A program made the translations under genes and the position numbers. Shown here one piece after another: positions 6,047 through 51,855 of a stretch of DNA of 64,000 nucleotides. The notes below the pieces were generated by a model. That model ran no database searches and was not told where the DNA came from. It saw only the letters and a list, made by a program, of their open reading frames with translations. The stretch's first letter is position 1. Each line of letters opens with the position of its first letter. The DNA is from Minisyncoccota bacterium (lineage in GTDB: Bacteria; Patescibacteriota; Minisyncoccia; Phycocordibacterales; UBA9973), in assembly GCA_041674285.1 (NCBI GenBank), contig JBAYVZ010000001.1, forward strand, positions 10,167-74,166. Reading direction: 5' to 3'.

Positions 6047-9000
6047 ATGAAAAATTTTGGACATAAAATAATTTCTTTGATTCTTTTGGTTGTACTACTG
6101 ATAACAAGTGGTTTTTTTGTTGATAATATAAAAAAAGCAAAAGCATCTAATTCAAAAACAGTTACAGTTACTTTTCGTACCACTCCAACTACTGCAACCG
6201 TTGCAAAAGCTCCACTGAAATATAATAAGGATTTTGCTTTTAGTTTTCAGATGGATGATGGTAGTGCGGACAACTACGAGAATGGTTTCAAATATATGTA
6301 TGGAGGTACTAGTTCATTATTAGAAGAAAGTTATGGTGGTAAATATTTTACAGATGGATCTGGACGATCTACTGCACTAGCTAGTAAGCCATTTCGTGGT
6401 GACTTTGTTTGGAATTCTCGAAACTATAGTTCAAGTTTTGTAGAGCTACACGCAGCCCTAAATACTCTTACTTGGACAAAACTCCTTGATGCGAATACTG
6501 CAGGATTTGACGTATTGAACCACAGTTGGTCTCATGCTGCTGTGACTACACTAGGGGATAATTATGTTTATGATTATCCTGCGCCACAAGGTGCTACTAC
6601 TCTGGAATCTGGTGGTTATGAATATGAACTTAGTCAAAACGAAGACGAGGTGGCTAGTCACGGGGTGACTATGGCACCACTTGCTATGGTTCCTCCGGCA
6701 GGAGATCATGGATATATAGATCCTGCTTTTTCTACTGGTTACAAGCTCGTAGCCAGTGAGAGTTCGTCTTTTACTTACTCAGGTGGGACGGTTGCTGTAG
6801 ATACGGGTGGTATGAATGTGACTTCGAGTGTAGATTTGGACCATCTTTTTGCTTATCGATATTTTTATGAAGATAGTAGATTTACCCCAAACACCGCTAC
6901 GGCTATCACTACACCCATAGACACACTTGCATCTCGTAGTCGTGGGTCAGATAAATACTGGGCTATTGGTTTTACTCATAGGACGAGTGTGGTCTCTGGT
7001 GGCCTATCAGAATCAAATTATGAATCATTGATGGACCATATTGCTAGTACTTATGGCCGTGATGGGGATGATTCTATCTGGATGGCTCCAGCCGAAGAGG
7101 TGTATGACTATTTATCCACAAAGCAAAATACAACAGTCTCTACAAACACAGTAGGGAATGTTATGACTATTACACTCGACACATCATCTGTACCAGCGTT
7201 GCGACGCGAGGCTCTATCTCTGGTTGTATCTTCTGATGCCGAGATTGAATCTATCGCATATGCTCCCGGAGAATTTACTGCTACTAGTTCAAATATAAAT
7301 ACTGGTCTGATTAATATGGATTGGGGTACTGTATATACAGCCAATGATTTTACCCGTGTAGAAACATTAGTATCCGCTGCTGAATCTAGTCGTGCGCAGT
7401 CTGACATCGATATCGCTACTACTTATGTCGCTATGTTGCCAGCAAGTGTTGAGAAAAATAATTTTACTAGTAGGTTAAATAATATTGTTGTTTTAGGTCA
7501 GCGATGGTTGATCAATCTGGGTATCAATAGTGCAGGCAAATTACAAGACACAGTAGTGGGTAGTGAGACAGAGAATCTTTGGTGGAATGAGATAAATTTA
7601 GTTTCCAATACTGGTTCAAATCAGACATCACCCATACTAGTAGACACTGCAAATGTAAATACTAGTCTTACTGTAGTTTTACCTCAATCTACTACTACAA
7701 ATTCTTGGGTAAAACCAGGAGCGGGTAGTGAGGGTCAGACTACTGTCACAGACGGTGATGGGGCTTATCCAAATGCTAAAATGCAAAAAGGTCTTTATAT
7801 CAGTAACGCAACAGAAACTTCACCTGTTGTTCAGATTCATAATCTTGACCCTGTAAAGAAATATAAGGTCACAATTTTTGGTTCTACAAAAAATTTAAAT
7901 AGCGGAAAAACTACGTCAAATATTGCAGTTCAGGGTGTATCTCAGGGTCCGTATCAGCATTATAATAATACAAGTAATACTTTAATATTTAGTTCCGTTT
8001 CTCCTACTGTTAGTGGGGTTATAGAGATTGTTATGACTCCTGTGAATCCAGCTTGGAGCGTGACTCCTATAAATGTCATCGATATCAGTGAGGTCACTCC
8101 TGCATTGCCAACTATAACTTTTAATTCTCAATCTCTACGCAGTCAGATTAGTGGGCTTGTTGATTACGGATATACTATTACTGATGACAATAGTGATCCT
8201 ATTTCCCTTATGAGCTATCAATACTCTGCCACCGGTGCATTTAATGGCGAGGAAGCGACTGCTACTCCAAAATCAAGCGACGGTCTTCATGATGGAATTT
8301 CTTCTTTGACTTCTTCTCCTGCGGGTGTTGCTCATGATTTCGTATGGGATGCTATTACTGATTTACTTGGACAAGAGGGAACTTTTTATCTAAGACTCCG
8401 ACCACAGAATCTATCCTCTGATGGGTCATATTCAATTGCTACTCCAGTCGCTCTCGATTTCAAGAACCCCGTACAGACTAGTATCGGCGCTACGACAACT
8501 TCATCTACTGCAAGTATCACTTGGACTACCCAAGAGATCGCGTATGGATTGGTGGAGTATGGTACTACGGATTCATATGGATCAAGTGTAGGATCCTTGT
8601 CATCTGGTACAGCGGTATTGAGTCATGATTTTGATTTGACTGGATTAGATGCTTGTACTACTTATCACTACCGTGTGTCTTCTCGAGATAGTGTGGGTAA
8701 CAATACCGTATCATCTGATCAGACGATGCATACAGCTGGATGCCCTGATCCTGTAGCTAGTCCTGTGGCTGGATTGTATAATGCGACTCAATCAGTGACA
8801 CTATCTGCTACTGGATCTTCTTCTATTCGCTATTCGACAACTAGTACCCCAGCTGATTGTTCTGCTGGTACTCTGTATAGTGGCGCGATATCTGTAGCAT
8901 CAGATACTACTATATATGTACGTGCTTGTGATATTTCAAACAATTCAACTACTGGTAGTTTCCTCTATACTATAGATTCCGAAGCCCCATCTACACCAGC

Positions 9001-10195
9001 TTCATCACCGTCGGATGGTACATACAACAGTACTCAGTCGGTCACACTATCAGCTGCAGGTTCTGATTCTATAAGATATTCTACATCGAGTACCCCAGCT
9101 GATTGTTCTGCTGGTACTCTATACAGTGGTGCTATCTCTGTGTCCTCTAATCAGACTATTTATGCTAGAGCATGTGATACCGCAGGTAATTCTTCTACGG
9201 CATCTTTTGCTTATGTTATAGATACTAGTGCCCCAGACACTGCGGTTGCTTCACCTAGTGCTGGTACATACAACAGCACTCAATCTGTGACCCTATCATC
9301 TTCTGGGTCAGATTCTATCCGCTATTCTACATCAGGCACACCATCTAACTGTTCTGCTGGTACTCTGTATAGTGGCGCGATATCTGTAGCATCAGATGCT
9401 ACTATATATGTACGTGCTTGTGACGGAGCAGGGAATGCCTCCACGACATCTTTTGCTTATGTGATAGACACTGAAGATCCTAGTATTCCCGTAGCGAGCC
9501 CCTCTGCTGGTACTCATGAGGGTACTCAATCAGTGACACTATCTGCTACTGGATCTTCTTCTATCCGCTATTCGACAACTAGTACTCCAGCTGATTGTTC
9601 TGCTGATACTCTATATGGTGGAGCGATAACTGTTGCTTCTGATACTACTTTATATGTGCTAGCTTGTGATGAGGCAGGGAATTCATCTACTGCATCTTTT
9701 GAATACGTAATAACAATAGATGATACTCCTCCAGCCCCTGTGAATGAATCCAGGAGATATGGTAGCTCATCTTCAAGCTCTTATTCATCTGCAAGTTCAA
9801 AAATATATTCACCTGTAATCGCTACCTCAAATGCTAGTGTTTTATCTGGGGTAGTTTCTAGCACGAATAGTCCAGATAATAAATATCCAATAGCTGTATC
9901 TATTAATACAGGTACTCCTAATGTTAAAAATAATATAGTTTTTTCTATTGAAAAATTACCAAATATTATTAAGATAAACAACTCAAATCCAAATATCAGA
10001 TCACTCCAAGAATTTTTAGTCGACTCATCGTCTGGACCCAAAGCTAAAGCTCTAGAGAAGCATGGTCTTACAAAGAATTTTGGATTACTCACAAAAGCCG
10101 CCCTTACTGAATGGCAAAAGGCGAATGGCCTAAAAGCTGATGGTATATTCGGACCAAAGACAAAAGCAAAAATAATTGAAATATTAAATAAATAA
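6047..10195 (+). CDS. Giant cell-surface protein with CE4/NodB-like polysaccharide deacetylase domain, FN3 domain, four tandem CHB_HEX_C-like Ig repeats and C-terminal PG_binding_1 domain
   Basis: Signal anchor; NodB-like motifs FQMDDGSAD and NHSWSHA. Four roughly 80-aa repeats (PVASPVAGLYNATQSVTLSATGSSSIRYSTTSTPADCSAGTLYSGAISVASDTTIYVRACD...). C-terminal LQEFLVDSSSGPKAKALEKHGLTKNFGLLTKAALTEWQKANGLKADGIFGPKTKAKI resembles the PG_binding_1 domain. Confidence 0.65.
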   Translation: MKNFGHKIISLILLVVLLITSGFFVDNIKKAKASNSKTVTVTFRTTPTTATVAKAPLKYNKDFAFSFQMDDGSADNYENGFKYMYGGTSSLLEESYGGKYFTDGSGRSTALASKPFRGDFVWNSRNYSSSFVELHAALNTLTWTKLLDANTAGFDVLNHSWSHAAVTTLGDNYVYDYPAPQGATTLESGGYEYELSQNEDEVASHGVTMAPLAMVPPAGDHGYIDPAFSTGYKLVASESSSFTYSGGTVAVDTGGMNVTSSVDLDHLFAYRYFYEDSRFTPNTATAITTPIDTLASRSRGSDKYWAIGFTHRTSVVSGGLSESNYESLMDHIASTYGRDGDDSIWMAPAEEVYDYLSTKQNTTVSTNTVGNVMTITLDTSSVPALRREALSLVVSSDAEIESIAYAPGEFTATSSNINTGLINMDWGTVYTANDFTRVETLVSAAESSRAQSDIDIATTYVAMLPASVEKNNFTSRLNNIVVLGQRWLINLGINSAGKLQDTVVGSETENLWWNEINLVSNTGSNQTSPILVDTANVNTSLTVVLPQSTTTNSWVKPGAGSEGQTTVTDGDGAYPNAKMQKGLYISNATETSPVVQIHNLDPVKKYKVTIFGSTKNLNSGKTTSNIAVQGVSQGPYQHYNNTSNTLIFSSVSPTVSGVIEIVMTPVNPAWSVTPINVIDISEVTPALPTITFNSQSLRSQISGLVDYGYTITDDNSDPISLMSYQYSATGAFNGEEATATPKSSDGLHDGISSLTSSPAGVAHDFVWDAITDLLGQEGTFYLRLRPQNLSSDGSYSIATPVALDFKNPVQTSIGATTTSSTASITWTTQEIAYGLVEYGTTDSYGSSVGSLSSGTAVLSHDFDLTGLDACTTYHYRVSSRDSVGNNTVSSDQTMHTAGCPDPVASPVAGLYNATQSVTLSATGSSSIRYSTTSTPADCSAGTLYSGAISVASDTTIYVRACDISNNSTTGSFLYTIDSEAPSTPASSPSDGTYNSTQSVTLSAAGSDSIRYSTSSTPADCSAGTLYSGAISVSSNQTIYARACDTAGNSSTASFAYVIDTSAPDTAVASPSAGTYNSTQSVTLSSSGSDSIRYSTSGTPSNCSAGTLYSGAISVASDATIYVRACDGAGNASTTSFAYVIDTEDPSIPVASPSAGTHEGTQSVTLSATGSSSIRYSTTSTPADCSADTLYGGAITVASDTTLYVLACDEAGNSSTASFEYVITIDDTPPAPVNESRRYGSSSSSSYSSASSKIYSPVIATSNASVLSGVVSSTNSPDNKYPIAVSINTGTPNVKNNIVFSIEKLPNIIKINNSNPNIRSLQEFLVDSSSGPKAKALEKHGLTKNFGLLTKAALTEWQKANGLKADGIFGPKTKAKIIEILNK
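8750..9700 (+). repeat. Four tandem roughly 240-bp intragenic repeats, near-identical at nucleotide level
   Basis: Blocks such as ctgtatagtggcgcgatatctgtagcatcagat(a/g)ctactatatatgtacgtgcttgtga recur at about 8870, 9110, 9360 and 9600. Confidence 0.7.
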
Positions 10196-10242: not shown

Positions 10243-11862
10243 ATGAAAAAATATTTGGTGTCATTGTTTTCTTTTTTATTTTTAATTTTATTTGCATCAA
10301 ATGTGTATGCTTCAATCACTCCTATTATTACTTTGAGTGATACTAGCTTGGTGGCAGGCGAGACTGCTACTGTGACTTTTACTTTCACAGAAAATCCACT
10401 TTCTTTTACTGCTGATGATGTCACTGCTTCAAAGGGCATAATTTCTGATTTTACTGTCACGGGAGATCCTCTAGTTTATATTGCGACTTTTACCCCCACT
10501 TCTGAGATAATCGATGCATCAAATGTTATAACAATTGCATCAAAAGATACTATAAAAAAGTTTACAGGTCTACCTAGTTATTCTCGCACAGACCTTGCTT
10601 TTGATGGTACGAATATGTGGGTTACTTCTTATGTTGCAGAGAATAGTGTATCAAAGGTGGCTCCGGATGGTACTGTTACTACCTATACTGGTACAGGTAG
10701 TTGGCCAAAGGGGATTGAATTTGACGGTGTTAATATGTGGACTGCAAACTATCTTAGCCACAATGTATCCAAGATAACCCCAAGTGGTACCATCACAAAT
10801 TTTTCTGTAGCCGGTAATCCAGATGGTATAGCATTTGATGGCACAAATATGTGGACTGCAAACTATACTGGACATAGTGCTTCCAAGATTGAACCTAATG
10901 GCTCTGTTACTACTTATTCAGGTCAGGCAGGTAGTTACCCGTGGGATATTGCATTTGATGGTACAAATATGTGGACTGTAAACTATTATGGTGGCACCGT
11001 GACAAAATTCACACCCGAAGGTGTGGCTACTACATATAGTGGTATAGGTGACTGGGCTACTGGAATTGCATTTGACGGTACAAATATGTGGACTGTTAGT
11101 AATTATGAAAATCAAGTAGCAAAGATTGATCCCTCTGGTAATGTCACTACTTATTCTACTGGGGGTGGACTAGGTGCTGGTGGTTACGGATTGGTATTTG
11201 CAAATGATTATATCTGGGTTGCTGATAATGTTTCTAGTAGATTAATAAAGATGAATACTAGTGGTGTGATAGAGAAGACTTATTCTCTCGGTGTTTCTCC
11301 TTATAATGTCATCTCTGTAGATTCGGAGATCTGGATGACTTATAGTAGTGGTGGTATTGCTCGACTAGGTAGTAGTACTTCTGCTAATTCAGAAAATTAT
11401 GAAATAAATACAAGAACATACACATCATCATCTAGTTCTTCTTCTACCCACTACGGATGCAAGGATGAGTCAGCTATAAACTATGAATACTTTGCCGCGA
11501 GTGACCCGTCTCTGTGTAAATATGGAGAAAACCCCATTGTCGTAGCCACCAGCTCTCCTTCGGTATCTATGAATTCAAAAGAATTAATTTTGACTGTTAC
11601 TAGCGTATTTGAAAATAATATTTCTAAAATTAAAAATATTTTAAAATTTGGTTCGAATAATTCAGAAGTTGAGATGCTCCAGCAATTTTTAATTGATAAA
11701 AACATTGGTCCTGCGTCTGCATCTTTAAAAGATCACGGTACTACTTATGAATTTGGCCCTCTGACAAAATCTGCATTAGCTGAATGGCAAAAGGCGAGTG
11801 ATTTAAAGGCTGATGGTATTCTAGGTCCTCTGACAAAAGCTAAAATGCTGGGATCTCTATAA
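10243..11862 (+). CDS. Secreted Big-like plus 7-bladed beta-propeller (Vgb-lyase/NHL-like repeat) protein with C-terminal PG_binding_1 domain
   Basis: Signal peptide; seven repeats of the form FDGTNMWTANY...SKI.P.G.VTTY. C-terminal MLQQFLIDKNIGPASASLKDHGTTYEFGPLTKSALAEWQKASDLKADGILGPLTKAKM matches the PG_binding_1 domain of the preceding gene. Confidence 0.6.
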   Translation: MKKYLVSLFSFLFLILFASNVYASITPIITLSDTSLVAGETATVTFTFTENPLSFTADDVTASKGIISDFTVTGDPLVYIATFTPTSEIIDASNVITIASKDTIKKFTGLPSYSRTDLAFDGTNMWVTSYVAENSVSKVAPDGTVTTYTGTGSWPKGIEFDGVNMWTANYLSHNVSKITPSGTITNFSVAGNPDGIAFDGTNMWTANYTGHSASKIEPNGSVTTYSGQAGSYPWDIAFDGTNMWTVNYYGGTVTKFTPEGVATTYSGIGDWATGIAFDGTNMWTVSNYENQVAKIDPSGNVTTYSTGGGLGAGGYGLVFANDYIWVADNVSSRLIKMNTSGVIEKTYSLGVSPYNVISVDSEIWMTYSSGGIARLGSSTSANSENYEINTRTYTSSSSSSSTHYGCKDESAINYEYFAASDPSLCKYGENPIVVATSSPSVSMNSKELILTVTSVFENNISKIKNILKFGSNNSEVEMLQQFLIDKNIGPASASLKDHGTTYEFGPLTKSALAEWQKASDLKADGILGPLTKAKMLGSL

Positions 11863-13129: not shown

Positions 13130-14239
13130 ATGTCACTATCCATAGGAATCGTAGGCCTACCAAACGTAGGAAAATCAACATTATTCAACGCTCTGACTAA
13201 AAAGAGTGTACCCGCAGAAAATTATCCATTCTGTACTATCGACCCATCTGTGGGTGTAGTTCCTGTGCCTGATGATCGTCTATATAAACTTGCAGATTTT
13301 TCAAAGACCAATCGTACGATTCCAGCAGTCGTAGAATTCGTAGATATCGCAGGTCTAGTAGAAGGTGCGAGTAAAGGTGAAGGGTTGGGTAATAAATTCC
13401 TAGCCAATATCCGCGAGACCGATGCCATACTACATATGGTGCGCCTGTTCCCATTATCTGGTGGGGACAAAGAGATAGCTCATGTCTATGGCAATGTAGA
13501 TCCAATGCGAGATATAGCAGTGATCAATCTCGAGCTGATCCTCGCTGATTTCGAGACTGTGACCAAGAGACTCAGTAATTTGCAAAAAGATGTAAAGAAA
13601 GGAGACAAAGAGGCTGTAATGGAAGATGATGTTCTTCGCCGTGTTGAAAAAGTATTAGAGGCGGGAAAACTCGCAAATAGCTTAGACTATACAGAAGAAG
13701 AATTTAAGAAAATCAAAAGTCTAAATCTACTGACTAGCAAGCCGATGATCTATGGATTAAATAAAAAAGCCGGAGTCAAAAATTTGGACGAAGAGAAACC
13801 TGAATATTTTAAAGAGATGACGGACGAGATTGTATCCGGTGGATCGCAGTGGATATTGATCGATGCCAAGATTGAAGATGAACTCAAGGATTTTGAAGGT
13901 GAGGAAAAAGAGACTTTTCGTCGTGAGCTCGGAGGTGAACATGATGGTATAAATGATCTGATTGGTGGATGCTACAAGCTATTAGGTTTGGATACATATT
14001 TTACGACAGGGGTAGAGGAGACTCGTGCATGGACTATCAAGACTGGTAGCACTGCACCAGTAGCGGGTATGGCCATACATACAGATTTCAAAGACAAATT
14101 CATCCGTGCTGAGGTAGTATTCTGGCGTGATTTACTAGACGCTGGCTCTATGGGTGAGGCTCGTGCAAAGGGTAAAGTCCGCACAGAAGGCAAGGAATAT
14201 ATAGTAAAAGATGGAGATGTAATGGAGTTTAAGGTATAG
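13130..14239 (+). CDS. ychF: Ribosome-binding ATPase YchF (Obg-family GTPase)
   Basis: IGIVGLPNVGKSTLFNALT P-loop, FCTIDP, VEFVDIAGLV, TGS-like C-terminus; length typical. Confidence 0.9.
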   Translation: MSLSIGIVGLPNVGKSTLFNALTKKSVPAENYPFCTIDPSVGVVPVPDDRLYKLADFSKTNRTIPAVVEFVDIAGLVEGASKGEGLGNKFLANIRETDAILHMVRLFPLSGGDKEIAHVYGNVDPMRDIAVINLELILADFETVTKRLSNLQKDVKKGDKEAVMEDDVLRRVEKVLEAGKLANSLDYTEEEFKKIKSLNLLTSKPMIYGLNKKAGVKNLDEEKPEYFKEMTDEIVSGGSQWILIDAKIEDELKDFEGEEKETFRRELGGEHDGINDLIGGCYKLLGLDTYFTTGVEETRAWTIKTGSTAPVAGMAIHTDFKDKFIRAEVVFWRDLLDAGSMGEARAKGKVRTEGKEYIVKDGDVMEFKV

Positions 14240-14358
14240 CTTATTTAAGAGATAATATATAGTATTACCACTTCTTGCCCCGTAGCAAATTTTATGCATT
14301 TGATAAAATTTTGCATTGGGGTAGTAAAAGATGGAGATGTAATGGAGTTCAAGGTATA
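14201..14358 (+). repeat. Direct duplication of the last 39 bp of ychF, bracketing an 80-bp hairpin-containing insert
   Basis: (a/g)tagtaaaagatggagatgtaatggagtt(t/c)aaggtatag at 14201-14239 and 14320-14358. Insert 14240-14319 contains attaccacttcttgccccgtagc and the stem cccc/gcaaatttt...aaaattttgc/gggg. Confidence 0.75.
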
Positions 14359-14825
14359 GTATTGCATTAATTTTTATTTTTGGTATATTAAAAAGATGAG
14401 ACAAAGTTTCAAAAACACAAACGTCATTTATATTAACCTGCTGAAATACCAGTTAGAGGGTTAATTTTTGTGTTTTTTTAAACTACTATAAAAGAACAAA
14501 AAAATGAGCTCTCTAACGATAGCTCATTTTTTTGTTCTTTTATTTTTGTACCTTTAAAATTTATCACAATGGAAACAAATCCATCCACACAAGAAGGAGA
14601 GACAACTCCTGTAGAAAAAAATGAAGTTGAATCTTCACAAAGAAAAGGCCCTTACGACTTAGGGAATTTGACTGTCGAAGAGAGCAACGATCTTCCTAAG
14701 ATTAAAAAGAATATGGAAGAACAAAAAAGAGGTTTTAACCATGATGGTGGTTGTTACTAATTTTTTGAAATTTAGAGATAAGACCCAGTATATATATGCT
14801 GGGTCTTTTATGTTATATTTAAAAT

Positions 14826-15962: not shown

Positions 15963-16697
15963 TTATTTTTTCTTTTTATTCACTAGTTCTGCGTGTTGCT
16001 TTTTTAGGTCAGCAATCTCGGTAATTAAAAGTCCGAGAGTCTTTTCTATTTGGGTCAACATCTTGTCGTCATTTGTTTCTTCTTCTGTTTGTTCTTCCAT
16101 ATCTTCTGACATCTCATCCATATCTTTTTCAATTTCTCCGACATCTTCTTGGATTTCTTCGACGTCTTCTTGAATTTCATCTACATCTTTCTGGATTTCA
16201 TCCACATCTTTTTCAATTTCTCCGACATCCTCCTGAATCTCCTCAACATCCTCTTGAATCTCTTCAACATTTTCTTGAATTTCCTCGATATCTCGAGACA
16301 CTGCATGGAGCTTGCGAGCTTGTCTATTCACGCTCATCTGGATAAAGATAGAAAGATATATGGCCTCGAGGGATACTATGGTTGTGACTACTAGGAGTAT
16401 ATTGCTTAGGTCAAAACCTATAAAATAAAGCATAAAAGACATCATGAATAGTGCAGTGTGAACTAGAATAGAATTTGTAGAACCTATAGAATGAGTTGCT
16501 TTGATAGCAAAACGTTCAATTATATCAGCTTGTCGCTTTTTTAGTTCTCTTAGCATATGGTTTATTACGACGAGTGAGGAGCATGTGAACATGTACTCAT
16601 GTTCACAATGTCCGAGTCGAAGTCTTATTAAAGGGTTAATACATTCTTTATTATAAACCATATTTTTGCTATAATCTAGTGTATTATGGATAATCAA
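15963..16697 (-). CDS. Membrane protein (DUF1003/COG4420-like core) with C-terminal acidic heptad-repeat coiled coil
   Basis: Two TM helices followed by IFIQMSVNRQARK (SxNRQ motif), then about 9 tandem EEIQEDV/GEIEKDV heptads. Confidence 0.45.
   Translation of the reverse strand: MIIHNTLDYSKNMVYNKECINPLIRLRLGHCEHEYMFTCSSLVVINHMLRELKKRQADIIERFAIKATHSIGSTNSILVHTALFMMSFMLYFIGFDLSNILLVVTTIVSLEAIYLSIFIQMSVNRQARKLHAVSRDIEEIQENVEEIQEDVEEIQEDVGEIEKDVDEIQKDVDEIQEDVEEIQEDVGEIEKDMDEMSEDMEEQTEEETNDDKMLTQIEKTLGLLITEIADLKKQHAELVNKKKK
16080..16300. repeat. 21-bp tandem repeat array (about 9-10 units) encoding the EEIQEDV heptads
   Basis: Units such as ttcttggatttcttcgacgtc recur in tandem. Confidence 0.75.
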
Positions 16698-29629: not shown

Positions 29630-29717
29630 AACACCCGTATGGGTGTTTTATCTTATAAAATAGGGAATTGATAAATATTAAAAAATCTGGTAATATCAGA
29701 TTACGTCTTTTGAGGCA

Positions 29718-29913
29718 TGCCTGGATAGCTCAGTTGTAGCGTCCCCGCAAAGAGCATTGAAGTTGTTACGTTTAATATAAAGAAATACGCCTGGATAGCT
29801 GTTTTGGTGGATAACGCAAAATTGTTGTAAAGGTTTAAATAATGCCTGGATAGCTCAGTTGTAGCGTCCCCGCAAAGAGCATTGAAGTTGTTACGTTTAA
29901 TATAAAGAAATAC
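29718..29913 (+). repeat. Array of tRNA-Phe 5'-fragment repeats: two 70/71-nt units plus a degenerate 55-nt unit, each starting with the first 12-18 nt of tRNA-Phe
   Basis: Units at 29718-29787 and 29843-29913 are identical except for 1 nt; the degenerate unit at 29788-29842 begins gcctggatagctg. All start gcctggatagct(cagttg), which is the acceptor/D-arm 5' end of the downstream tRNA-Phe. Confidence 0.7.
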
Positions 29914-29986
29914 GCCTGGATAGCTCAGTTGGTAGAGCGCTCCCCTGAAGAGGGATAGGTCCCCAGTTCAAATCTGGGTCCAGGCA
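29914..29986 (+). tRNA. tRNA-Phe (anticodon GAA)
   Basis: gcctgga-ta-gctcagttggtagagc-g-ctccc ctGAAga gggat-aggtc-cccag ttcaaat ctggg-tccaggc-a; canonical Phe anticodon loop CTGAAGA. Confidence 0.85.
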
Positions 29987-30277
29987 CAACAACCCGACTT
30001 TTGTCGGAAGCAACAAAATTTTCACGGGCGGCGCATAGCGCCGACCAAGGATTTTCGCCTGATTTATATGAAATCCTTCAAAGGTTTTCTTAATTGTAAT
30101 TTTAGAACAAATTAATTATTGCCCTTGCGATTGTTTTTTGGATAATCTGTAGTATGGACATATTATTTTAATATAGTATAGTCTAACTAATATTTGTTTA
30201 TTTGAAAAAGTTTAAAGTGTAGTCACAGTAGAGGATTTACCCCCTTTTGTGACCACACTTTAAATAAAATAACTGTT

Positions 30278-42794: not shown

Positions 42795-42852
42795 TTTAGA
42801 GCCCTAAATTCCCGTTTGCTTTCAGAGATGAAAGTGAGCGGGATTTTTTTAT
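42795..42852. terminator. Intrinsic terminator (cassette terminator copy 2; also terminates convergent tsaD)
   Basis: ctaaattcccgtttgctttcagagatgaaagtgagcgggattttttt: 2 mismatches versus copy 1. Confidence 0.7.
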
Positions 42853-44022
42853 TGGTTTTTTAAGATAATTAAAGTATCCTGCGATGGCTATCATCAGGCC
42901 GTTGTCAGTAGAAAGTTTTTTTGTAGGGAAGTATACTTTAATTTTTAATTTTTCATTTTTAATTTTTAAACCTACTTTCTCTCTCAATACTTTTTGTAAA
43001 TGCGTATTTGCAGATACTCCACCACCCACTATCAGCGTCTGGATTTTATATTTTTCTATGGCCTTGATTGTCTTGTATGTCAGGACTTCTACTATTGAAT
43101 CTTCTACTTCACAAGCTATTTCTTTTTTTTGTTCATCATTTATATCTCCAAGGTCGCGTATCAAATACAGCACTGCAGTCTTGAGTCCAGAGAATGAAAA
43201 ATCAAAATCTCCAGAGTGTATCATTGGGCGAGGTAATTTAATTTTATTCTCCTCTTGAGGAGTACCCGCCAATGCGGGGGAGGTGGATGTATTTGAATTC
43301 TTTCGATGCTCTGCTGCCAATTTAGAAATCTCTGGTCCGCCGGGGTACGGCAGGGATAGCATGCGGGCTACCTTATCAAAAGCTTCACCTGCTGCATCGT
43401 CACGAGTTTGACCGATGACTTTGTATTTGCCGAAATCTTTCATGAGGACTAGCTCTGTATGTCCACCAGATACGAGCAGAGAAAGAGCAGGGAACTGTAT
43501 CTCTGGAATTTTCCCCTCATCTGTCATCAATATAGATAATATATGCCCCTCCATGTGGTTCACAGGTAGTAGTGGGAGATCCCATGCGATAGACAGTGCT
43601 TTTGCAAAGCTGATACCTACCCATAGTGCTGGCTCGAGGCCTGGACCTACTGTCACAGCTATGGCATCTATCTTGGGCTTGGCTATCTTAGATATGGAAT
43701 TTATGAATGTTTCTGGTAAGTCATTTTCTCTTGAGAGTATCTCTTTTATTTTTACCTCATCAATTTTTAATTTTTCATTTTTAATTTTTAATTTAAATAG
43801 TCCTGCATCTTTGAGTGCTTTTTCAAAAACGGGTACGATATTCTTGCCGTGCTCGCGCTTTGCCATCATAGGGAATACGCCACCATAGTTCGTATGGATG
43901 GGTTGGGATTGTATTGCATTTGCCATCATGTGCAGACAGTGACTACTCTTTCCACGCTTCCGCGCGTCGAGTATCGCTATTCCTGTATCGTCGCAAGATG
44001 TTTCTATTGCTAGTATCTTCAT
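42796..44022 (-). CDS. tsaD: tRNA N6-adenosine threonylcarbamoyltransferase TsaD (Kae1/Gcp family) with Lys-rich insertions
   Basis: N-terminal MKILAIETSCDDTGIAILD, ...GGVFPMMAKREH..., ...LLVSGGHTELVLM..., C-terminal ...GGGVSANTHLQ...; 408 aa versus about 340 typical. Confidence 0.9.
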   Translation of the reverse strand: MKILAIETSCDDTGIAILDARKRGKSSHCLHMMANAIQSQPIHTNYGGVFPMMAKREHGKNIVPVFEKALKDAGLFKLKIKNEKLKIDEVKIKEILSRENDLPETFINSISKIAKPKIDAIAVTVGPGLEPALWVGISFAKALSIAWDLPLLPVNHMEGHILSILMTDEGKIPEIQFPALSLLVSGGHTELVLMKDFGKYKVIGQTRDDAAGEAFDKVARMLSLPYPGGPEISKLAAEHRKNSNTSTSPALAGTPQEENKIKLPRPMIHSGDFDFSFSGLKTAVLYLIRDLGDINDEQKKEIACEVEDSIVEVLTYKTIKAIEKYKIQTLIVGGGVSANTHLQKVLREKVGLKIKNEKLKIKVYFPTKKLSTDNGLMIAIAGYFNYLKKPIKKSRSLSSLKANGNLGL

Positions 44023-44128
44023 AATATTAATTATACTTTGAATTAAAATTTAAATTACCACTTCCCGCCCCGTAGGAAGTACTCTTTCCTTTGGGGTCGC
44101 AAGAGGTCTCTATCGCTAGAATCTTCAT
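43990..44128. repeat. 33-bp duplication of the tsaD start region, bracketing a 73-bp hairpin-containing insert
   Basis: gtcgcaagatgtttctattgctagtatcttcat (43990-44022) versus gtcgcaagaggtctctatcgctagaatcttcat (44096-44128). The 4 mismatches are all synonymous for MKILAIETSCD. The insert contains attaccacttcccgccccgtagg and the stem cccc/ggaa...ttcc/gggg. Confidence 0.75.
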
Positions 44129-44208
44129 TTTTAGAATATAGCAAATATAAGCCTTTTTGACTATACTTTATAAATATGTTATTTTAAATAAAAGAAAATT
44201 AATTTATC

Positions 44209-49853: not shown

Positions 49854-50476
49854 AATTAATTTTAGCTTCAGATTTTAGTTTTCTTTTGAAATACGGTTAT
49901 GATGCCGTAGGTATTTCAAAGGATCAAATGAAAATCGGCTGGGTCACTACTGCGTCAAAGGGTGAAAAGGATAGTAGTTTTATTGCTTCAACAAGAAATA
50001 CTTTAGTAAATGAGAAATATAATTTTGAGGAATTTGATATAGAGGGCAAGACAAGTGAGGAGATTAGAAATTTTTTTAAAGATAAAAATGTAGTTCATAT
50101 AGAAAGTGGTAATACTTTTTATTTATTGAGAGTAATTCGAGAAACTGGTTTTGCGGACATTTTAAAGGAATTAATAAATGAGGGACGTGTGTATATTGGC
50201 AGTAGCGCAGGTGCATATATAATGTGTCCAAGTGTTGTAGTGTCTGACTGGAATGATTCGAGTGTGGATCGTTTTGGCGTTACTGATTTTACTGCTCTTG
50301 GTTATGTTCCTTTTGTTTTAAGAGTTCATTATAGGGAAAATAGAGAAGATTTTATTCGTGAAAGAATGAAGACTTTAGAGTATCCTTTTAGAATTTTGAG
50401 AGATGGACAAGGTATAATAGTCGAAGATGGTAAATATACTTTTATGGGTGATGGTGAAGAAGTAATTTTAAAATAA
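49850..50476 (+). CDS. Peptidase S51 family (dipeptidase E/cyanophycinase-like)
   Basis: VHIESGNTFYLLRVIRETGFADILKEL...YIGSSAGAYIMCP with catalytic Ser in GSSAG. Confidence 0.6.
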   Translation: MKLILASDFSFLLKYGYDAVGISKDQMKIGWVTTASKGEKDSSFIASTRNTLVNEKYNFEEFDIEGKTSEEIRNFFKDKNVVHIESGNTFYLLRVIRETGFADILKELINEGRVYIGSSAGAYIMCPSVVVSDWNDSSVDRFGVTDFTALGYVPFVLRVHYRENREDFIRERMKTLEYPFRILRDGQGIIVEDGKYTFMGDGEEVILK

Positions 50477-50547
50477 TACCTGTCCCGTAGTAAATTTTTG
50501 ATTACGGGATATAATGATAAAATTAACAGTTAAAATTTAGTATCGGG

Positions 50548-51855
50548 ATGAACATCGACTTATCAAAAATTAAACATGTGCACTTTATAGGAATAGGCGG
50601 GATTGGTATCTCGGCTATTGCTCGTATGATGGTATCTATGGGAAAGAAGGTTTCAGGTCAAGACGTGCACGAGTCAAATATAACAGCTGACTTATCTTCT
50701 CTCGGTGCGGATATTGTTCTAGGGCAATCTATGGAAAATATTCCCGCAGATGCAGATCTCGTAGTCTATACCATTGCTATCGAATACTACGATGAAAAGT
50801 TTTTCTCTGAATTAAAATTCCAAGATATTCCTATACGTTCATATCCGCAAATGCTAGGCGAGATATCAAGAGATCAGTACACGATAGCCGTCACTGGTAC
50901 TCATGGCAAGACCACGACTACGGGTATGACCGCCCAGATATTCAGAGACCTGGAGAGGGATCCGACAGTCGTCGTGGGTAGTCTACTGTCTGACGGGACA
51001 AATTTTGTATACGGCCACAGTGGGATATTTATCGCAGAGTCTTGCGAGTACCGTCGCTCGTTTTTGAATATGAGTCCAAAGATTTTGGTGATTACAAATG
51101 TAGATGAAGATCACCTAGACTACTACCGAGATATCGAAGATATAAAAAGTGCTTTCCATGAGTTGGCTATGAAGGTCCCCGAAGATGGATTTATAGTATG
51201 TGATCCAAACGACAACAATATCCCAGATATCATCGCTGATACAAAAGCTACTATTGTAAACTATCAAGATTTTTACGAAGCTGATTTAAAATTGAAAATC
51301 CCTGGTATACACAACAAGAAAAATGCAGCATGTGCGGTGGCCGTGGCTACATGCCTGGGTATAACAGAGGATGATGCTAGGGGTGCAGTGGTGAATTTCT
51401 CTGGTACATGGAGACGATTCCAATACAAAGGCAAGCTTGATAGTGGTGCTATCGTATACGATGACTACGCCCACCATCCTACAGAGATAAAGGCCAGTCT
51501 CCAAGGTTTTCGCGAATTGTATCCTGCAGAGGATGGATACCGTTTGACTATTGTATTCCAGCCACATCTATATAGCCGTACAAAATCATTGCTAGCAGAT
51601 TTTGCTACGAGTTTTGTATCTGCAGACAATGTGCTCTTCCTGCCTATATATGCAGCTCGTGAGGTAGATGATGGAACTGTATCTTCAAAAATTTTATCAG
51701 AAGAGGTAAATAAGCATAAAAATAATTCTGCATCATTCCCTGACTTTGATAGTGCATTCGAGACTCTCAGCATGATGGGGCTACACGACAAGGATATCAT
51801 CATCACACTAGGTGCAGGGGATGCATTACTGATTGGAGACCGTCTACTCGCGTGA
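50548..51855 (+). CDS. murC: UDP-N-acetylmuramate--L-alanine ligase MurC
   Basis: VHFIGIGGIGISAIARMM, AVTGTHGKTTTT, Mur ligase middle and C-terminal domains. Confidence 0.88.
   Translation: MNIDLSKIKHVHFIGIGGIGISAIARMMVSMGKKVSGQDVHESNITADLSSLGADIVLGQSMENIPADADLVVYTIAIEYYDEKFFSELKFQDIPIRSYPQMLGEISRDQYTIAVTGTHGKTTTTGMTAQIFRDLERDPTVVVGSLLSDGTNFVYGHSGIFIAESCEYRRSFLNMSPKILVITNVDEDHLDYYRDIEDIKSAFHELAMKVPEDGFIVCDPNDNNIPDIIADTKATIVNYQDFYEADLKLKIPGIHNKKNAACAVAVATCLGITEDDARGAVVNFSGTWRRFQYKGKLDSGAIVYDDYAHHPTEIKASLQGFRELYPAEDGYRLTIVFQPHLYSRTKSLLADFATSFVSADNVLFLPIYAAREVDDGTVSSKILSEEVNKHKNNSASFPDFDSAFETLSMMGLHDKDIIITLGAGDALLIGDRLLA

Follow-up and report, generated by a model that had tools for sequence, protein, structure and literature searches.

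Islands that target tRNA and tmRNA genes, and the C-terminal replacement of atp6 in Allomyces, supply a foreign, functional gene end and leave the resident end behind as a displaced direct repeat. In integrons, recombination of attC with attI involves a single folded strand and is resolved by replication, a scheme that would fit the element described here. Repetitive extragenic palindromic (REP) sequences are imperfect palindromes of 21-65 nt that carry GT[AG]G at the foot of their hairpin (PMC6006769). We analysed a stretch of 64,000 nt from a Minisyncoccota bacterium (contig JBAYVZ010000001.1, positions 10,167 to 74,166; hereafter the window, with positions counted from its first letter), in which the end of ychF and the start of tsaD are each duplicated around a short hairpin. 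We consider it fairly probable that the two sites belong to a so far undescribed family of short mobile modules of the Patescibacteria (Candidate Phyla Radiation, CPR), which are non-autonomous and carry their own homology arm.

The ychF gene (13130..14239, + strand; 369 aa) is an open reading frame (ORF) for which the identical protein bears the Pfam domains MMR_HSR1 and YchF-GTPase_C and the NCBI name YchF (P0121). Its functional end including the TAG stop (X_A, 14202-14239, + strand) recurs at 14322-14359 (X_B), 120 nt away from start to start, with 37/38 identical positions and a sole, synonymous difference of TTT>TTC (Phe). The original prediction had described a 39-bp repeat of the gene end with one synonymous change; the repeat and the change are real, but the coordinates were off by one and the repeat is 38 nt long. 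Between the copies lie 25 nt of AT-rich, imported DNA (flank a, 14240-14264, + strand) and a segment of 57 nt, S (14265..14321, + strand), which was found by motif search and by covariance model R1 (61.2 bits, E 6e-15). X_A and flank a together form an arm, H, of 63 nt (14202..14264, + strand), a length inside the 61-65 nt rule set out below. The ychF S is of the long-hairpin type and reads TTACCACTTCTTG, then CCCCGTAG, then a stem with the apical loop GCATTTG, and finally GGGG. As had been predicted, a motif, ATTACCACTTCTTGCCCCGTAG at 14264-14285, runs into a hairpin with CCCC/GGGG closure (14278-14321) that has GTAG at the foot of its inner stem; the predicted DNA fold of S has -9.3 kcal/mol (z -2.4). 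This 22-nt motif occurs twice in the window, against 0.00 occurrences expected from window shuffles. X_B (14322..14359, + strand), the displaced resident 3' end, is contiguous with the native downstream flank. The whole ychF structure is unchanged in two assemblies of other samples, with one mismatch in 7110 nt (L022; collected loci are cited by such numbers) and none in 5129 nt (L023).

The second occurrence, expected at the start of tsaD, was likewise recovered there together with its hairpin (44054-44096). The tsaD gene (42796..44022, - strand; 408 aa), an ORF recognised by Pfam TsaD and by homologs, has its first 32 nt inside a module arm of 64 nt (43991..44054, + strand), which is made up of X_A, the functional gene start (43991-44022; its reverse complement is ATGAAGATACTAGCAATAGAAACATCTTGCGA), and of flank a, again imported (44023-44054, + strand). 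The arm is followed by an S of the short-hairpin type (44055..44096, + strand, 42 nt; motif search, covariance model R1 37.5 bits, E 2e-8), in which the motif spans 44054-44075 and the short hairpin, near-identical to that of L053, ends at 44096. Behind it stands the displaced resident start X_B (44097..44128, + strand), contiguous with the native upstream region and with promoter-like sites that a simple promoter scan placed beyond the displaced start (44135-44188, minus strand). The two gene-start copies are identical at 28/32 positions, with 4/4 differences at third codon positions, and MKILAIETSC is encoded by both. The displaced ATG opens a 33-codon upstream ORF (uORF), MKILAIETSCDPKGKSTSYGAGSGNLNFNSKYN (minus strand, 44023-44128), which crosses S and has its stop 4 nt short of the true ATG. 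Most 5'-type copies have similar uORFs; as these read through S in each of the three frames, a coding role of the insert was rejected. Loci with such uORFs are prone to wrong start-codon calls, and the uORFs may couple translation.

Both window copies are recent insertions relative to close relatives. Nine contigs encoding YchF proteins of 89-98 % amino acid identity lack exactly 120 bp (14202-14321, equivalently 14240-14359), and their ychF end and downstream flank are collinear with the window from 14322 onward (alignments A2 and A5). At tsaD, four related contigs (TsaD identity 96, 93, 85 and 84 %) have the same neighbours and an intergenic distance of 79 bp, compared to 186 bp in the window, and the sequence from their start codon upstream runs collinear with the outer copy (44097-44128) and with what lies beyond it (alignment A1). 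A covariance model search found no S in the tsaD and ychF loci of the relatives. The 25 nt past the functional ychF stop have a counterpart in none of these relatives. While the coding part of the ychF repeat differs at 1/38 positions, no alignment is possible between flank a and the native flank; the flank within H is foreign. From the empty sites, the collinear outer copy and the unmatched flank, we deduce that the imported DNA comprises one gene-end equivalent, its foreign flank and S. The module arm now supplies the final 38 nt of ychF. The empty sites and the foreign flank bear out the earlier idea of a miniature element that carries its own copy of the gene end, and the comparison of ychF 3' ends that had been proposed thus yielded nine contigs without the insert. 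Our call of resident versus imported copy rests mainly on this flank test. A check for co-conversion tracts was uninformative, as the window and its relatives are about 5-10 % diverged everywhere, with no rise beside the arm.

A wider search for the motif, also proposed before, found the exact S motif at 64 further loci, almost all identifiable ones being Patescibacteria and showing the same anatomy. Scanning species-representative genomes gave the motif at 21 loci, and a metagenome scan gave 45 loci more. A Patescibacteria-lineage name is borne by 16 of the 21 genome matches (Nomurabacteria, with five in one metagenome-assembled genome (MAG), Paceibacterota, Saccharibacteria, Zambryskiibacteria and Parcubacteria), and three are MAGs with uninformative names and the same architecture. 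The remaining two are Bacteroidota that have no G before CCCC; one of them (L002) is without an arm/copy pair, the other (L014) is cut by the contig end, and both look like chance matches. Across Patescibacteria classes the motif is conserved at 19 fixed positions of 21 nt. A covariance model of 17 copies gave 74 matches, 50 of them distinct, in 444 kb of collected loci. Zero matches to the motif among the 2.9 million viral contigs of IMG/VR ruled out a phage-borne element.

The recurrent targets are tsaD, uvrB, xth, clpP, ychF, fusA and tRNA. Gene starts (tsaD, uvrB, xth, clpP, dnaJ and a tRNA) are targeted as often as gene ends (ychF, fusA and others). The ychF boundary in L039 equals that of the window, whereas tsaD has at least three boundaries and clpP two; the several boundaries within tsaD and clpP argue for independent events. 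With at least seven different gene ends, several boundaries in two of them and junctions that share only a T, the original prediction of a site-specific element, in the sense of one attachment sequence, did not hold up. At one Nomurabacteria site (L019:1566 and L041), an H-S unit lies in non-coding DNA beside a perfect DnaA-box-like TGTGGATAA; both the arm and the displaced homolog are intergenic there, so that targets need not be genes. In one gene seen in two metagenomes (L060 and L067), the arm gives a short new start (MANR...), and the displaced sequence behind S appears to encode a far longer, lysine-rich N-terminus. At this gene, the module may change the protein end and not just copy it.

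The copies share a strict geometry. Along the S strand, the gene body is followed in essentially every copy by X_A, flank a, S, X_B and native flank, in this order. The 5' end of S always faces the functional gene, at gene starts and ends alike, and X_B always begins immediately after the GGGG of S; the orientation of S relative to the local coding strand simply follows the target type. In 34/35 measurable copies the arm, taken as the stretch between the inner X_A boundary and the first T of TTACC, has a length of 61-65 nt, with a mode of 64 (n=15), and its coding part takes up anywhere from 13 to 56 nt. The lengths of arm and S are weakly and negatively correlated (r = -0.26). The first arm base is T in 33/34 copies, with a G before that T in 18/34, and S terminates as GGGG|T in 34/34; ahead of S there is a weak preference for TTATA (68-76 % per position). 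S itself spans 39-63 nt, composed of TTACCACTTC-NNG-CCCCGTAG, a variable covarying stem and CTAC(T)GGGG. In three loci with a sufficiently conserved intergenic part (L004, L061 and L009), the arm can be aligned end to end with the 64 nt after S at 0.80-0.84 identity, and from these whole-length alignments we define the unit as an arm H of 64 nt, which has its homolog in the 64 nt of target that come next, plus S. In about 50 distinct copies the module measures about 100-130 nt and codes for no protein. Tandem arrays of at most two to three units occur with periods of 114 (L001) and 124 (L043); in L001, fusA is followed by two units, and it is in the outermost gene-end copy that the protein sequence diverges most. 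Four features go beyond the original prediction: the arm length is constant, the polarity is strict, the spacer of 25-32 nt is foreign flank of the imported gene end, and the range extends across the Patescibacteria.

The hairpin of S covaries. Its upper stem shows compensatory double changes in 8/8 pairs, and its stem cells are paired in 87-90 % compared to 70-73 % in shuffles, with slid controls at about 50 %. On the S strand, 22 G.T pairs stand against 10 A.C pairs. The apical loop of long-type S is conserved as GCAYTCG, as is an unpaired 13-nt motif at the 5' side, and GTAG is invariant directly 5' of the variable stem, within the CCCC/GGGG clamp. From this pattern of substitutions we conclude that S is under structural selection. 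In L004 and L070, the apical loop of S houses a further hairpin, 36 nt long and of a related type; it sits between GCAC and TCG, with no duplication, which suggests that it targets single-stranded DNA. Hairpins of this type (C.TGTCCCGYAG...CTRCTGGGAT) may represent a second, simpler mobile hairpin family. The same type stands in the window at 50476..50549 (+ strand), directly past the stop of a peptidase S51 gene and ahead of a Mur ligase gene; it reads TACC TGTCCCGTAG...TACGGGAT and is a weak, diverged relative of S of uncertain membership (covariance model R1 15.4 bits, E 0.02).

Comparing X_A with X_B across loci, with one mis-framed locus excluded, we counted 72 synonymous differences versus 26 mostly conservative replacements, and stop-to-stop changes as well. 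By their codon changes, X_A and X_B thus differ as two functional orthologs do, unlike a duplicate decaying in place. The two flanking-repeat copies are 47-84 % identical, and none of about 40 pairs is near-identical over 64 nt. Across hosts, arms at one target show higher similarity than the resident copies, in some cases higher even than the adjacent gene body. For xth, the arms have a mean identity of 0.78, the resident copies 0.68 and the gene body 0.71; the arms of L047 and L065 agree at 0.92 with resident copies at 0.44, and those of L016 and L066 at 0.81 with resident copies at 0.59. As the arms resemble each other more than the hosts' own resident copies do, we conclude that H-S units move between lineages.

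In the reading that we favour, H (about 64 nt) would be a foreign orthologous gene terminus (the last or first 13-56 nt) with its adjacent flank, and the module would enter exactly where the resident homolog of H has its 5' edge (N|T). The gene would then be completed by the H of the module, while the resident end, still intact, would be moved outward behind GGGG, and repeated entry at the same edge would give tandem arrays with a period of 64 plus the length of S. A protein may bind a handle formed by TTACCACTTC and the hairpin, and a discrete piece would be released by one cut at the G|T that follows S and another at a (G)|T some 64 nt upstream of S; the spread of +/-2 nt in arm length would fit the choice of a nearby T. 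This piece would pass between lineages as DNA. Saccharibacteria are naturally competent (PMC10187176). In the recipient, H would pair with the target homolog and so select the site, the target strand would be opened at the edge of the pairing, and the displaced resident strand would be rejoined to the 3' end of S. By its chemistry, this reaction would belong with those of HUH, integron or Xer systems, as a single-strand cut-and-join that depends on a hairpin. The model would explain why the gene is always 5' of S (the module would carry only the upstream flank), why the resident end stays intact, and why arrays grow outward from the gene. More tentatively, and as a possibility that we would not bet on, the module may be a protein-less natural 'home-and-rescue' device, in which the arm of about 64 nt would serve as both address and replacement and a trans-acting enzyme of the Patescibacteria would read TTACCACTTC and the hairpin, measure 64 nt, and cut and join at G|T. 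DNA insertion programmed by homology in this way would form a new class, and the arm would be reprogrammable in principle.

Several observations weigh against a dedicated mobile module. Among the 40 ORFs of the window, Pfam found housekeeping families throughout and no transposase, integrase, reverse transcriptase or defence gene, and an exploratory tblastn over 590 kb of loci, with IS608 TnpA and E. coli RAYT as queries, found no Y1 transposase; its one long weak match was rpoC. No free or circular module was seen, and founder copies (S without a displaced copy), which the model predicts, were not clearly identified in the loci. Three diverged S copies that lack ACTTCNC (L005:6665-6716, L075:250-292 and L013:3823-3866) keep the displaced copy with arms of about 92, 52 and 89 nt, respectively, from which it follows that the ruler goes with an intact 5' motif. 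Identical S hairpins occur at different genes of one genome (L006 and L015), and one arm lineage is found with differing hairpins; S and H are therefore not strictly co-inherited, and the mismatch needs gene conversion among S copies or another process. Furthermore, single-nucleotide polymorphisms (SNPs) alone are too weak to tell which coding copy is resident, as the relatives are about 8 % diverged throughout the genes, and the tsaD SNPs (ATA/GCA/GAA|ACA vs ATT/GCG/GAG|ACC) fit a reciprocal crossover inside X, at codons 7/8, slightly better than insertion of a whole arm.

That crossover would also fit a rival reading in which S is a transposable hairpin that makes a fixed 64-bp target duplication, with the two copies later coming to differ because homologous recombination with other lineages replaces one of them, or through excision of the repeat-flanked unit and Campbell-style re-integration at orthologous sites. 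A fixed length is the classical sign of staggered target cuts, and the three loci with end-to-end alignable copies would fit such a duplication as well. Yet none of the roughly 40 pairs comes close to identity over 64 nt; at ychF, a coding part with 97 % identity adjoins a flank that cannot be aligned, which point mutation cannot yield; and a symmetric origin predicts the functional gene on either side of S, whereas it is seen only 5'. To our knowledge, a target duplication of 64 bp would itself be unprecedented. We regard this explanation as unlikely.

Also unlikely, and a little more so, is an origin that needs no dedicated machinery, in which S would be a resident hairpin of a REP-like, terminator or uptake kind and the duplications a by-product of transformation, as a hairpin-trimmed strand is spliced in beside its homolog (homology-facilitated illegitimate recombination). 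Patescibacteria are naturally competent (PMC10187176), the arms are foreign orthologs, and the site of the junction is precisely the foot of a hairpin that is GC-clamped, within an AT-rich genome. Such passive recombination leaves unexplained, however, why the arm measures 61-65 nt, why S has an unpaired 13-nt 5' motif, why a T stands at both junctions (a microhomology of 1-2 nt), and why 19/21 motif positions are fixed across Patescibacteria classes.

We also weighed whether the main role of S, alone or together with H, is that of a functional RNA (a regulator, a guide, or a structure of the 3' or 5' untranslated region), with the duplications being incidental. The covarying stem and the excess of G.U-compatible pairs on one strand would suit an RNA, and in 5'-type copies the reverse complement of the S end and flank reads GAAGTGGTAA-TATAA, resembling an extended -10 element directed toward the gene. 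Such a sequence (GTGGTAA-TATAA) occurs in many copies, but it is not convincing in the window, where a simple promoter scan calls nothing inside S, and we give low weight to S as an outward promoter. A search of Rfam gave no relevant match in the window at the gathering threshold and only spurious miRNA and lncRNA models at E <= 10, which ruled out a known RNA family; of the RNA checks that had been proposed, stem covariation was thus positive, and no Rfam family matched. S is sense at gene 3' ends and antisense at 5' ends, and uORFs cross it in three frames. An RNA function would not by itself create insertions with foreign arms, although it could coexist with mobility. On balance, we think a primary RNA role improbable.

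Integrative elements that restore a gene end are well known, and the original prediction had considered the footprint of an integrase-type element; the repeats would then be the attL and attR of a larger element with the gene end in attP, and the interior would have been lost. This is very unlikely. About 50 copies share one small size and geometry with a constant arm of about 64 nt, starts are targeted as often as ends, tandem arrays occur, no integrase lies in, between or near any copy examined, and viral contigs yielded no motif. Finally, the chance that two strain haplotypes of the gene end were concatenated during assembly is negligible: the duplicated segments do differ by synonymous changes only, as strain variants would, but the structure is identical in independent assemblies, the same geometry occurs at 64 further loci from many groups and assemblers, and an assembly bubble would not place a conserved, covarying, non-homologous hairpin between the copies every time.

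Turning to the genomic setting, GC skew is positive over the 64 kb and nearly all genes lie on the + strand, from which we take the window to lie within one replichore with + as the leading strand. Both window S copies are on the G-rich strand, in agreement with a lagging-strand-template polarity as in IS608 (n=2); across loci, the S strand is G-rich in 10 and C-rich in 23 cases, a split that does not support a strict polarity of this kind. The window holds other repeats as well. The first 18 nt of tRNA-Phe (29914-29987), GCCTGGATAGCTCAGTTG, are repeated three to four times upstream (29717-29936, + strand), separated by a 52-nt unit present in two copies at a distance of 125 nt, and one of the copies in the middle is a diverged fragment of the tRNA 5' part that extends further. 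These repeats follow the same stacking logic and are treated as a separate element, because the covariance model does not match them, the arm is not 64 nt long, and their motif is absent from the 81 loci compared. Coding tandem repeats comprise four 246-nt units (8786-9769) in a surface-type ORF of 1382 aa (6047-10195), units of 114-120 nt at 10595-11156 in the ORF after it, and eight overlapping register copies, with a 21-nt period, of a 97-nt stretch (16071-16314) in a coiled-coil ORF with an EIQEDV motif (15963-16697).

If the mobile-module reading is right, an element of ultrasmall bacteria would carry its targeting information along as a 64-nt homology. This would explain how it settles in essential, conserved gene ends (tsaD, uvrB, clpP, xth, ychF, fusA and tRNA) without killing, how it hops between distant hosts, and why stacked fossil gene ends record successive invasions; it would amount to a new mechanism of horizontal transfer and to gene mosaicism on a micro scale in the Patescibacteria. 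Also implied would be an enzyme that has an inbuilt ruler and cuts and joins at G|T, an activity with a short-homology address that would be of interest to genome engineers. Annotation would be affected as well: displaced starts produce uORFs and mistaken gene starts, and S is a place where contigs break. On the more conservative readings, too, the structure is a clear marker, so far unreported, of inter-lineage recombination in a phylum that is uncultivated.

Among known systems, classical insertion sequences (IS) and miniature inverted-repeat transposable elements (MITEs) have terminal inverted repeats, whereas the module starts with a variable arm (T...), ends in ...CTACTGGGG and has the S hairpin as its sole inverted repeat. 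They make identical target duplications of 2-15 bp, whereas the module repeat is 61-65 nt long, 47-84 % identical and marked by ortholog-like differences, so that the original prediction rightly set this duplication apart. An autonomous source of transposase was found neither in the 64-kb window nor in the 590 kb of loci.

The hairpins of REP/RAYT and IS200/IS605 systems come closest in size to the 39-63 nt of S with GTAG at the foot of its variable stem (PMC6006769). REP sequences likewise occur in many extragenic copies per genome, isolated or clustered, and in short- and long-stem variants (PMC6006769). Neither REP nor IS200/IS605 has a flank duplication or a homology arm, while nearly every S has an arm and a displaced copy, and S adds a CCCC/GGGG clamp and the unpaired 13-nt 5' motif. 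Unlike REP with its RAYT, S was found with no Y1 transposase among the window ORFs or in the loci searched by tblastn. IS200/IS605 elements, together with palindrome-associated transposable elements (PATEs), have hairpins at both ends, a fixed tetra- or pentanucleotide target and no duplication; S is a single hairpin with a weak TTATA and only a T at the far junction, and it shows no fixed replication orientation (10 vs 23), in contrast to the lagging-strand-template bias of IS200/IS605.

Diversity-generating retroelements (DGRs), with their template and variable repeats, show adenine-confined changes and encode a reverse transcriptase, whereas module differences are of all kinds and mostly synonymous, and no reverse transcriptase was found in the window. 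CRISPR and TIGR arrays have long identical repeats, unrelated spacers and cas or tas genes; modules form arrays of at most two to three units whose 'spacers' are homologs of the adjacent gene end, and the window contains no such genes. DGR, CRISPR-like array, group I/II intron and integrase footprint were each rejected as failing to match in defining features.

Integron cassettes (with CTX-phage/Xer integration as an analogous case) resemble the module in their terminal hairpin with conserved outer and variable inner parts, an extrahelical base, a G|T joint and arrays. The attC core (R''/R'; RYYYAAC ... GTTRRRY, cut at G|TT) differs from CCCCGTAG ... CTAC(T)GGGG|T of the module in all but the G|T. 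Moreover, the window contains no intI and no attI, and the 'cassette' of the module is a fixed 64-nt, non-gene arm homologous to its site, in dispersed copies. Gene-end-replacing islands and mitochondrial mobile ORFs are kilobases long, encode an integrase or endonuclease and have one target each, whereas the module is about 105-125 nt long, protein-less and found at many targets, at 5' and 3' ends. Integrase-type elements hold kilobases of cargo between their repeats; the window modules hold 25-32 nt of flank and 42-57 nt of S, and other loci are alike. Synthetic home-and-rescue and cleave-and-rescue drives (PMC6442612) also sit in or next to an essential gene and supply a recoded rescue gene end; for the module, no nuclease or guide was found, and the ychF copies differ at only 1/38 positions, so that recoding cannot give immunity there. 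Our literature searches, including searches for the motif strings, found no published description of such an element. None of these systems unites in one protein-less unit of about 105-125 nt an orthologous arm of fixed length (64 nt), the replacement of gene ends on both the 5' and the 3' side, and many targets.

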